A stretch of 55,987 nt of DNA, filler included, from Dugesia japonica (GCA_001938525.1; 6 parts of 6 records of this genome joined end to end with filler, not necessarily neighbours in it); one strand, 5' to 3'. Numbered from the whole stretch's first letter, positions 47,402 through 50,019 are shown. Numbers and translations are program-made. Notes: generated from the sequence alone by a model not told the origin.

Positions 47402-47862
47402 TGGTTAGCCAAGTTTAATAATAATTGATTCTCGGTGGCGAGATGGTTTTTCTCAAACTGGGTATTGAACAGTTCTATTCTAAGGATTTGAGTATTTTCC
47501 TGTTCAATATTTAATTTATCTCTTAGCTCTTTTATTTGGGATTCTACTTCCTCGTATTTGGCTTTCCACATTCGAGCTTGTTTGATGGCGTTGACGTTCG
47601 CTATATTAGCATCAATATTGCTCTTTATATATTTTTTATGGGACTTGCAGGATCGTTTTTTGGTTTTCAGTTCTTGGTGAGCTCTTTCTACCTGATTTTC
47701 TAGCTCACTATTATATTTTTGCAATTGTAAGTTGGAGAGGGCATCTATTTTAGATTCGAGCTTCCATTTAAGTACTTCGGGTATAGTGGTGAGAGTTTTG
47801 GTTTGAATTTGTAGTATTTGAATTTCGTTACGCAAATGGTTTATCATATTTTCGTTGTTCAT
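47402..47862 (-). CDS. Accessory coiled-coil protein (at least 153 aa, runs into a gap)
   Basis: Heptad-rich open frame; CTCTCTCTGATTTTAG|AA ATG. Confidence 0.65.
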
Positions 47863-47945
47863 TTCTAAAATCAGAGAGAGTGGTTATTATAATAGAATTT
47901 CGATATATATATTATATACATTATTTACATAGTTTATTTTATTTA

Positions 47946-49142
47946 TCAATGAAATTGCACTCCCAACACCCTATGTACGATTAGTTTCCGACACATAGGG
48001 CATTCATTTAAATTTATAGCGCAGTTGTAACATCTTTTAAAATGTCCGCATGGAAGAAAGATAACTTCAATAGTTTCTTCCAGGCATGTGACACAATCAT
48101 TATCCTTTAATACCCATTCTTGTTCATATTTTACTTGTTGCCTTACTGGTCTAAGAGATTGTTGATATAATTCATAAGGTGTGCTTAATTCAGTCCCTTT
48201 CTCTATGAGTGTTTGTTTTATCAGTGGGTTGATATTTACTTGCTTGAATTTTAGGATATTAGTTAGTATGTTGGTCTGTAATTCAATTACCATTTTTGTT
48301 CTTGTAAGGGACGTATTCCATTCGACTCTACAAGTTGTTGTTGGTAATTTCTCCTCATCACTTTGCCTCGTCCTTGAACTGGTTTTGTGATGAAATATAT
48401 CCTTTGGCAATTTCTCTACACCTTTTAAGATCAGGGTTTTCTTTTTATATGTGGTGCATTTCATAATTTGGTTACTCGTTTGTTGAGTGATATATAATCC
48501 TGTCATAGCCTTTTTCATTAAGTCCGATGCTTCTTTAAAGGTTTTTTCTCTAGCTTTAATATTCCATATAAGATCCTTGGAAAATATTACTTCTGCCAGA
48601 TTCTTTATGATTCCGCAATATAATGTTTTCCGTTCCAGTGTTGTTTTCTCAGGTTCCAGCCTATTTCCTTTGATTGGCTGAATTTTATTATTTACATCTA
48701 GATATAATAGAAACGGACAAGTAGAAAACTATCTCTTGTGAGCTCTATTGGGTTTCTCGTTTATGCCCCATTTGCATAGGTTGCCTTGGCAGTATATACA
48801 TTTCACTTTATCTGAACGTTCTTGAGTGCCGGCGAAATAAAATCCAGATCTGGCTATATCCTCAATGAGTCCATGTAAATTTTTGGGTAAATCAAATAAG
48901 GATTTTGTTCGCATCCCTTCGTCACGATATTTATTGTCAAACACTTTCATCGCACTGTACAACACTTTGCGTCGTATAAGATTTTCTGGTGAGCCAAAGC
49001 TATTATGGTAATGCATTGTGTTTTGCACTTTTGAAATTTGCTTAACTTCATCTCGTCCTTGGCTCATGCGACATAATTCAATATATGGATCGTTCATTAT
49101 TAGTCTGGCCTCGATTATCGATAATTCCAGATCGAACTCCAT
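47946..49142 (-). pseudogene. Inhibitor of apoptosis (single BIR plus C-terminal RING), one in-frame stop at 48731-48729
   Basis: ORFs 48729-49142 and 47946-48518 share one frame. The BIR reads IARSGFYFAG...DKVKCIYC-x16-H-x6-C (RAHKR*FSTCPF). The IAP-type RING reads CVTC...VIFLPCGHFKRCYNCAINLNECPMCR. Confidence 0.92.
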
Positions 49143-49249
49143 TATCTACAATTATAGGTATGGTTGATTCTAGTTAGAATACTATTTATTTACATTAATT
49201 TTAATTAACAGTTTATTTATCATTTTTCTCAGTTTCTAAGTTCATATAT

Positions 49250-49933
49250 AGTTACTAGTAGATATTTACGTAAATAGTTTATATATTTTTTATTATATTT
49301 ATAATTTTTTCAACTTCCACTCTTCCATGGATTTTAGACAAAGCTGATTTGGGTGTGAGCACTCCGGGTTTTGAGTGTCTCGATTTTTCATATTTGTGAG
49401 TTTACCAATCCTTTGAGGTAATTTAGTTCTCCCGTCTGATTAGAGATAAGATCATGTTGTTTGGCTACTAACTCCATTGTGTAATTTTGTTTTTCTGTGG
49501 CAATTTCCAGCATTCGTCGATTTTCTATTATTTGTTGTCAACACATAAAGTTTTCCGCATATAAATTTTCGTTTTGTAATTGTATGATTTTATTTTTAAA
49601 TTCCAGCTCGCACCAATCTTGGGGTTTTATAGTTATTGGGGTTTATAATAATTGATTCTGGCGGTGTTCCAGTTCTTCTAATCGTTGTTGAGTCCATTGT
49701 GTTTGGACTTTAGCACTATTTCATAATTCTTTCATTTCTTCATTATGATTTATCCATATTTCGTTGATCGTCACTTGGGAAAAGATAATGTTATTATTAT
49801 TTATTGAGGTAATACTTCTTGCAGGACTACTACTATGGCTTGTTGTACTGGAACTCTCTATTTCACTTTGTGAGTACGTAGATTCATTTTCGCACTTATA
49901 TGAACATTCAATTCCATTTTCGATCTGACTCAT
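49250..49933 (-). pseudogene. Accessory Ser-rich/coiled-coil ORF with several stops
   Basis: TCTCATTCAG|AAAAA ATG at 49933. The frame continues past the 49721 stop with helical sequence (QQRLEELEHRQNQLL). AATAAA at 49217-49212 and 49190-49185. Confidence 0.55.
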
Positions 49934-50019
49934 TTTTTCTGAATGAGATAACTCGAATAATACCACCGTTATAATTACATGTAAATATACAGTTATTATA
50001 AATTTTTTTTATCATAATT

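Follow-up and report, generated by a model that had tools for sequence, protein, structure and literature searches.

The stretch of DNA analysed here, hereafter the window, comprises 55,987 nucleotides of Dugesia japonica (GCA_001938525.1; six parts joined end to end with filler). Between positions 47402 and 55250, on the minus strand, lies the decayed remnant of a Ty3/gypsy element, a long terminal repeat (LTR) retroelement in which three accessory open reading frames (ORFs) follow one another in the 3' part. Each of the three starts a few nucleotides behind a module that resembles a splice acceptor. This sequence design is real and statistically supported, and it is seen in a broken copy. 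Judged from sequence, the modules are probably selected splice sites, used by one route or another. As to the route, we tentatively put first the possibility that intact copies express the accessory ORFs in an operon-like manner, by cleavage of a common transcript and spliced-leader trans-splicing.

The first accessory gene, ORF A (49334..49933, ATG at 49933; all coordinates within the element refer to the minus strand), has about 200 codons, is Ser-rich and then helical-looking, and contains four internal stops. It is followed by an IAP gene (47946..49142, ATG at 49142) of 398 codons with one BIR, a C-terminal RING and an in-frame stop at codon 138. Both domains were recovered by Pfam (BIR, PF00653, E 5.4e-13, 49.7 bits against a cut-off of 22.9; zf-C3HC4_3, PF13920, E 5.9e-12, 45.6 bits against a cut-off of 27), and the protein matched 72 PDB sequences, with NAIP, cIAP and XIAP at the top. 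By its BIR and C-terminal RING, the gene, with its one internal stop, belongs to the IAP family. A protein search gave a single match among 1304 candidates, with 32% identity over 17% of the length. The third gene, ORF C (47402..47862, ATG at 47862), encodes at least 153 aa that look coiled-coil-like and runs open into an assembly gap; its Atlas matches were limited to unnamed clusters and had low recognition. The copy is a broken one, and whole proteins are probably not made from it, except perhaps that of ORF C. Leaky scanning to the downstream ORFs is implausible, since ORF A and the IAP gene contain 14 and 30 internal ATGs, respectively, and each spacer adds 2-4 more.

The three acceptor-like modules share one composition. 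Module 1 (49939..49971) consists of TAAC, a tract with 8 pyrimidines in 12 positions, and CAG; module 2 (49146..49176) of (C)TAAC, a tract with 7 of 12, and TAG; and module 3 (47865..47886) of TAAC, a tract with 10 of 12, and TAG. A preliminary description of this DNA had placed the AG dinucleotides at 49940-49939, 49147-49146 and 47866-47865. These coordinates were confirmed on the minus strand, and the gaps to the ATGs of ORF A, IAP and ORF C are 5, 3 and 2 nt, respectively. The pyrimidine-rich tracts that it described are present, but at the above counts they are only modest; module 3 has the second-highest pyrimidine score among 195 YAG sites (Y, pyrimidine). The AG is of the YAG type at all three starts. 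TAAC lies 30, 28 and 19 nt upstream of the AG in modules 1, 2 and 3, respectively, at a distance where a branch point would be expected.

The ORF starts were not chosen for their AG, because no in-frame ATG lies between each of them and the preceding stop. Using 20,000 dinucleotide shuffles per spacer, the joint probability of an AG within 5 nt of the three starts was 1.7e-3, and that of a YAG was 1.4e-4. When the YAG also had to be accompanied by at least 7 pyrimidines in 12, a threshold set post hoc at the weakest site, the value fell to 1.3e-6. A YAG within 5 nt is found at 22 of the 182 sense ATGs of the element, all three accessory starts among them (hypergeometric P 0.0016). The full pattern, TAAC included, occurs at 4 of the 182, and three of these four are the accessory starts. 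The three ORFs 5' of the array have no such module at their listed starts, which are uncertain.

The spacers before ORF A, IAP and ORF C are about 124, 189 and 83 nt long, not the 80-110 nt first estimated, and are 76-83% AT. The AATAAA signals read as described earlier at 49217-49212, 49190-49185 and 47943-47933; a further one at 49294 had been overlooked, and there is no enrichment. The earlier caveat that the signal lies in positioning and not in number proved apt, in that the polyA half of the design rests on position. Within 7.85 kb there are just three copies of the word GATAAA[AT]AAA, against 0.5 expected, and each spacer holds one of them. In the first spacer (50004..50013) it reads GATAAA-A-AAA, a single letter away from containing AATAAA. 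In the second (49212..49221) it reads GATAAATAAA, with AATAAA 71 nt before acceptor 2 and additional AATAAA at 49294 and 49190. In the third (47933..47947), where it overlaps the IAP stop, it again reads GATAAATAAA, with AATAAA 78 and 73 nt before acceptor 3. The distance from TGATAAA to the acceptor G is 75, 76 and 83 nt, and the extended word TGATAAA(T/A)AAA contains AATAAA in two of the three spacers. With no particular word assumed beforehand, a test for shared words gave a P of about 0.013.

Donor-like words are scarce. The sense strand has a single GT[AG]AG[TA] match against 6.4 expected (P 0.013), and the antisense strand has 12. The one sense match is a GTAAGT, a putative donor, at 53422..53427, at the end of the pol frame. 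An acceptor and a branch-like word beside the ATG, with almost no donor nearby, imply either a leader supplied in trans or a distant donor.

The window contains a second array of five short ORFs (61, 142, 94, 69 and 39 aa) at 12591..14616 on the minus strand, found in a scan of the whole window; this set leaves out a 49-aa ORF nested in the 142-aa ORF. An 85-codon frame also lies in it (13028-12771, minus strand). The second array partly repeats the acceptor and AATAAA design. Its ORFs are 42-47% GC and its spacers are AT-rich and 61-203 nt long. AATAAA is present in four of four spacers (joint P 0.004), with 7 in the region against 2.2 expected. The gaps from YAG to ATG are 0, 10, 0, 19 and 2 nt, so that three of five starts have a YAG within 5 nt (P 0.012). 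Neither a donor-like word nor a pol remnant was found in or near this array, respectively, and its ORFs gave no informative Pfam or viral match. Two matches of ORF 13609 on phage-like contigs were rejected; in the one contig inspected, L018, the match is antisense to another ORF. ORF C resembles ORF 13609 (z 5.0, P 0.001), as the best of 42 comparisons and between helical proteins, which weakly suggests homology, as a lead only. A DDE_1 transposase remnant lies beside the array (12128-12406, Pfam E 3.2e-07).

For intact copies of the element, the reading that we prefer would work as follows. The transcript would start in the LTR and read through the array. The preliminary description had called this transcript LTR-driven; the window contains no LTR, so that the start in the LTR stays an inference. 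In planarians, 3' ends form 10-30 nt behind the AATAAA (PMC5068929). The read-through RNA would be cleaved behind the internal AATAAA, if these signals are used, and the downstream piece would receive a host spliced leader in trans at the acceptor some 70-80 nt further on, the host being assumed to have spliced leaders. Skipping of the sites, which is also required of Cer1, would yield genomic RNA. The IAP, by analogy to the B-IAP of Burro1, would guard the cell that expresses it against apoptosis.

Trans-splicing is favoured because the polyA-like word and the acceptor are separated by a nearly constant distance and because the spacers match the lengths seen in spliced-leader operons. In C. 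elegans operons, 3'-end cleavage is coupled to trans-splicing, and a near-fixed spacing would suit such coupling. The operon genes of M. lignano and C. elegans are spaced about 100 bp apart (PMC8629364), and a cut-off of 300 bp or less has been applied to operons in parasitic flatworms (PMC12582326). Here, the genes lie on the same strand 124, 189 and 83 nt apart, within 300 nt in each case, and a YAG acceptor precedes the downstream start in three of three.

Transcripts and other copies were searched for traces of the predicted sites. Three of 7 raw RNA runs with the same species label were aligned to the element, and 10 of 10,544,396, 73 of 13,591,480 and 12 of 11,583,297 reads aligned. Among these 95 reads, 88 fit only partly and none reached 99% identity; the best-covered bins were those of integrase and RNase H. 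The three runs are evidence neither for nor against use of the sites. Loose T-run ends at 49310 were considered as polyA tails and rejected, as they lie on the wrong side for a minus-strand RNA and face an A-rich target. In addition, 5894 contigs of run X1, which we infer to be DNA, aligned to the element and covered 30 of 30 bins. Identity was at least 99% for 292 of the contigs, under 95% for 4825 and under 90% for 2637. Contigs in such number across all bins, with 4825 of them less than 95% alike, indicate a multicopy, diverged family. One contig spanning 48805-49283 had 77 differences and 4 gaps. Among all alignment differences, the 40 listed, a small fraction of the total, leave the three AGs and ATGs untouched. 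Another alignment of a single contig runs up to 49176, with the TAAC, AG and ATG of the IAP gene included, and resumes at 49333. At the modules, single X1 contigs point both ways.

Several observations weigh against operon-like expression by cleavage and trans-splicing. In these A-rich spacers the number of AATAAA is at the chance level, with 5 copies against 3.2 expected (P 0.20); the spacer before ORF A has none. The criteria for tract, TAAC and shared word were chosen after the sites had been seen, and alignments of whole spacers are weak (P 0.04, 0.38 and 0.08). A YAG within 5 nt, at least 7 pyrimidines and TAAC occur together in 0 of the 19 ORFs listed downstream of the integrase at 15 distant loci. 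Depletion of donors cannot discriminate between the routes, because a cis donor would be expected in the 5' leader, which lies outside the window. The 95 RNA reads include no splice joints and no start or end pile-ups, with next to no coverage at the acceptors. The X1 contig that resumes at 49333 leaves the AATAAA part of spacer 2 unaligned, and the acceptor and start of ORF C are missing from one X1 contig. In the second array, the strict YAG rule fails at two of five starts, and the distances from AATAAA to AG vary (46, 69/112, 85 and >130). Finally, a flatworm spliced leader reportedly ends in AUG; at two of the three acceptor sites such an AUG would be out of frame.

The frame of that AUG bears directly on the alternative of cis-splicing, by which a single donor would be joined to alternative acceptors; this donor would be either in the 5' leader or, if an internal promoter precedes it, the site at 53427, with the accessory genes as alternative last exons with their own polyA. 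We hold this to be somewhat unlikely. The same acceptor evidence applies to it, the one GTAAGT is available, no spliced leader is required and the out-of-frame AUG is avoided. It is also the usual route: a donor near gag serves in the splicing of Tor3a env (PMC4402516), and the ORF3s of rotifer elements are said to come typically from spliced messages (PMC5408684). Because it is the common route, and because the AUG of a flatworm leader would miss the frame at two of the three sites, cis-splicing is ranked close behind trans-splicing. On the other side, no junction reads were found in the three RNA runs, several kb and upstream polyA signals would have to be skipped, and the 75-83 nt spacing is not predicted by cis-splicing alone. 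The original proposal that one transcript is resolved by splicing has held in part: selected acceptors are supported by the sequence statistics, but cis and trans routes are indistinguishable by them and no RNA processing was seen. An internal promoter in each spacer, making each gene its own transcription unit and leaving the AG unused or as the end of a short outron, is unlikely. The TGATAA within the shared word would then presumably be a GATA-type site, accompanied by TATA-like runs. The spacers are 76-83% AT, and the word is kept in the first spacer despite the lack of a perfect AATAAA there. The env of Tor3b/4b is transcribed from an internal promoter and needs no splicing (PMC4402516). 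Such promoters leave the YAG, tract and TAAC at three of three starts unexplained and would have only 83 nt in the third spacer, and no start pile-ups were seen, at almost no coverage. A sigma-70 promoter scan was set aside as inapplicable to a eukaryote.

Two further explanations would deprive the signals of any present role. The AG and AATAAA may be chance features of AT-rich spacers, with the ORFs translated otherwise, by reinitiation or internal entry. The chance-level AATAAA counts fit this view, as do the small number of sites (n=3), the several post hoc thresholds, the lack of RNA evidence and the 11% of host ATGs that have a YAG within 5 nt. We nevertheless judge it decidedly unlikely: the least post hoc tests still gave P values of 1.4e-4 to 1.7e-3, the second array repeats part of the pattern, and no RNA structure was found in the spacers (z 0.15, 0.89 and 0.04). 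The genes may, instead, have been taken from the host together with their own acceptor and 3' end, so that the signals are unused leftovers of capture. The IAP gene is of the cellular BIR-RING type, and LTR elements are known to capture genes (PMC5408684, PMC6431247). Very little probability is given to this origin, because the ORFs are intronless, which suggests capture by way of RNA, and in a processed mRNA the acceptor would already be gone. Moreover, with the nearest IAP found at 32% identity over 17% of the length, unused signals should have decayed, and some route of expression would still be needed.

Each ingredient of the proposed operon-like expression has a precedent, in Cer1, 412, Tor or Burro1. 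Cer1 is a Ty3/gypsy element with a leader-spliced subgenomic RNA: its 2.4-kb RNA is trans-spliced to SL1, while the splice sites go unused in its 8-kb RNA (PMC3315495). In the present element such splicing is only predicted, and Cer1 differs in having one spliced RNA that shares Gag sequence, not a serial 3' array with internal polyA signals. Spliced-leader operons of C. elegans, M. lignano and parasitic flatworms have the same layout as the array, with same-strand genes about 100 nt apart and a polyA signal followed by an acceptor near the next start. Those operons are made of host genes and were shown by leader reads, whereas the array belongs to a retroelement that also needs uncut RNA, and its leader splicing is a prediction. 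In Tor elements of Oikopleura, a 3' gene is expressed from a subgenomic RNA, by splicing in Tor3a or from an internal promoter in Tor3b/4b; it is a single 3' gene, and the portion of the source available to us reports no internal polyA array (PMC4402516). An internal polyA site after sORF1 of 412/MDG1 yields a short RNA (PMC11952523), and in the plant Ty1/Copia element EVD splicing is coupled to premature termination (PMC5580714). In both, the short RNA covers the 5' portion of the genome and no downstream mRNA is released, unlike what is proposed here. LTR elements of bdelloid rotifers carry captured 3' ORF3s (nuclease, lipase, coiled-coil and transmembrane (TM) proteins), said to come from spliced messages; there is typically a single extra ORF, and the signals are not described in the portion available (PMC5408684). 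Burro1, one of the giant planarian Ty3/gypsy elements of more than 30 kb, is reported to carry a BIR and RING IAP, B-IAP (PMC13465017). Its BIR and other extra motifs are described as part of a 4,873-aa ORF1, and its env as lying between gag and pol (PMC6431247). The likeness to Burro1/GYPSM1, which were compared by description only, is that of a Ty3/gypsy element carrying a BIR and RING IAP. In the present element, which is preserved from RNase H onward, the IAP has an ORF and an ATG to itself; it lies 3' of the integrase and is preceded by an AT-rich spacer. The membrane-protein gene, too, is found 3' of the integrase, not between gag and pol. The element is hence not filed as Burro, because the extra domains of Burro1 are in the giant ORF1 and its env precedes pol. 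A serial 3' accessory array with a polyA signal and an acceptor for each gene did not turn up in full-text searches, most subscription papers being outside their range.

A more general reading, possible in our view but less than probable, is that LTR retroelements of this animal have built their own eukaryotic operons. Serial genes, a captured IAP among them, would be freed from one transcript by cleavage and trans-splicing. How often the sites are cut or skipped would act as a switch between accessory and genomic RNA. The second array may then be another instance of this design, arisen independently or distantly related. Retroelement 3' genes are usually expressed via cis-splicing or an internal promoter. 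If self-built operons exist, genes could be added as modules, each a signal of about 80 nt plus an ORF, that use the operon machinery of the host. This would help explain the pile-up of accessory genes, such as IAPs, in invertebrate LTR elements, and would tie expression of the element to cells that make the leader RNA. It would also offer three defined sites for asking how uncut genomic RNA crosses its own polyA signals. If cis-splicing is used instead, the layout would be that of a complex retrovirus in an invertebrate gypsy element, a less surprising outcome.

The element itself is of the Ty3/gypsy type according to the order of its pol domains, RNase H followed by an integrase with H2C2 and rve. 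In tblastn comparisons, pol relatives align in this order across 55244-53423. The integrase ORF (53722..54942) contains an H2C2 zinc finger (PF17921, E 2e-15) and an rve core (PF00665, E 3.9e-14). On the minus strand, the gene order is RNase H remnant, integrase, two Cys-containing ORFs, membrane-protein gene, ORF A, IAP and ORF C. The remnant is cut inside RNase H at its 5' end, and its 3' end lies in an assembly gap, a run of N at 47358-47401 into which ORF C runs at 47401. Joints of 100 bases (44 N, 12 letters, 44 N) are found at 47302-47401 and, in similar form, at four other places in the window. They are likely assembly spacers, hence the sequences on the two sides are not necessarily neighbours. 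No LTRs were found in the window, and no long direct repeat flanks the remnant. The flanking DNA has a GC content of 27.6%, which agrees with planarian DNA, more than 70% AT (PMC11410931), and with that of other animals as well.

Between integrase and ORF A lie two Cys-containing ORFs and a broken membrane-protein gene. Cys repeat 1 (52872..53360) has no Pfam match and its true start is uncertain. Cys repeat 2 (51783..52385) had no homologs in the searches run: none were found among 33 candidates, the Atlas gave nothing usable, and its single-sequence structure model was unusable (pLDDT 35.5). The two share 31% identity over 124 aa (E 3e-22), which marks them as tandem paralogs. The membrane-protein gene (50057..51620) shows by hydropathy a signal-like stretch and a C-terminal TM segment, with a basic tail and PPSY. 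It contains 7 stops in two frames and only 5 Cys in about 530 codons. Pfam gave nothing below E 0.1 for it, and the former label "env-like" holds by position only. Errantiviruses, the env-bearing Ty3/gypsy elements, are recognised by an F-type or gB-type env; here there is a broken gene with 5 Cys and no Pfam match. Flatworm errantiviruses in a survey had only gB-type env and the order gag-env-pol (PMC13524379). TM-ended C-terminal extensions were present in 6 of the 7 closest integrase relatives examined, and a membrane protein after the integrase therefore looks like a trait of the clade. These relatives (P0011, P0012, P0013, P0015, P0019 and P0022) are Ty3/gypsy polyproteins with the integrase in frame with the TM-ended region; P0011 also has PPSY, and P0013 has what we take, by eye, to be ankyrin-like repeats.

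Coverage by X1 contigs differs along the element. The summed depth is 3,500-10,900 over 49250-49777, 51890-52153 and 52682-52945, intervals that fall in ORF A and in portions of the Cys repeats, and about 100-600 over the membrane-protein gene and most of IAP; summed depth is not a copy number. The high-depth modules may be shared by further families. The 15 loci recovered from the integrase alignment have 32-44% identity to the integrase of the element, and none has an accessory gene in common with it. They (L002-L016) are Ty3/gypsy-like integrases in contigs filed as bacterial metagenome-assembled genomes or viruses, and are probably eukaryotic carry-over in those contigs. Scans of viral contigs with ORF C, Cys repeat 2, the integrase and ORF 14227 as queries found nothing, and a lone metagenome-scan match with 26% identity was dismissed as chance. 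A second, unrelated integrase remnant lies at 11-480 on the plus strand of the window (Pfam rve, E 2.9e-05).

The window has other features as well. Broken ORFs at 27077-28891 (minus strand) look like Polinton-type capsid genes; they have no Pfam match, and on inspection no clear acceptor module lies upstream of them. A 109-nt inverted repeat at 17791-18032 is 93% complementary, and related pieces lie near 5000, 30790 and 41480. Each of its arms contains a hammerhead-core-like word, as in Penelope-type elements. Rfam gave 0 matches at the gathering score and, for the repeat, only sub-threshold hairpin matches. Nested tandem and inverted repeats with units of 29-57 nt at 22700-25400 are like the ends of foldback-type DNA elements. 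Two frames are probable host coding sequences. One, at 19723-20259 (plus strand), encodes a hydrophobic 178-aa protein with four TM segments and no homologs among 184 candidates. The other, at 6132-8939 (minus strand), is a 935-codon low-complexity frame with one zinc-finger-like stretch.

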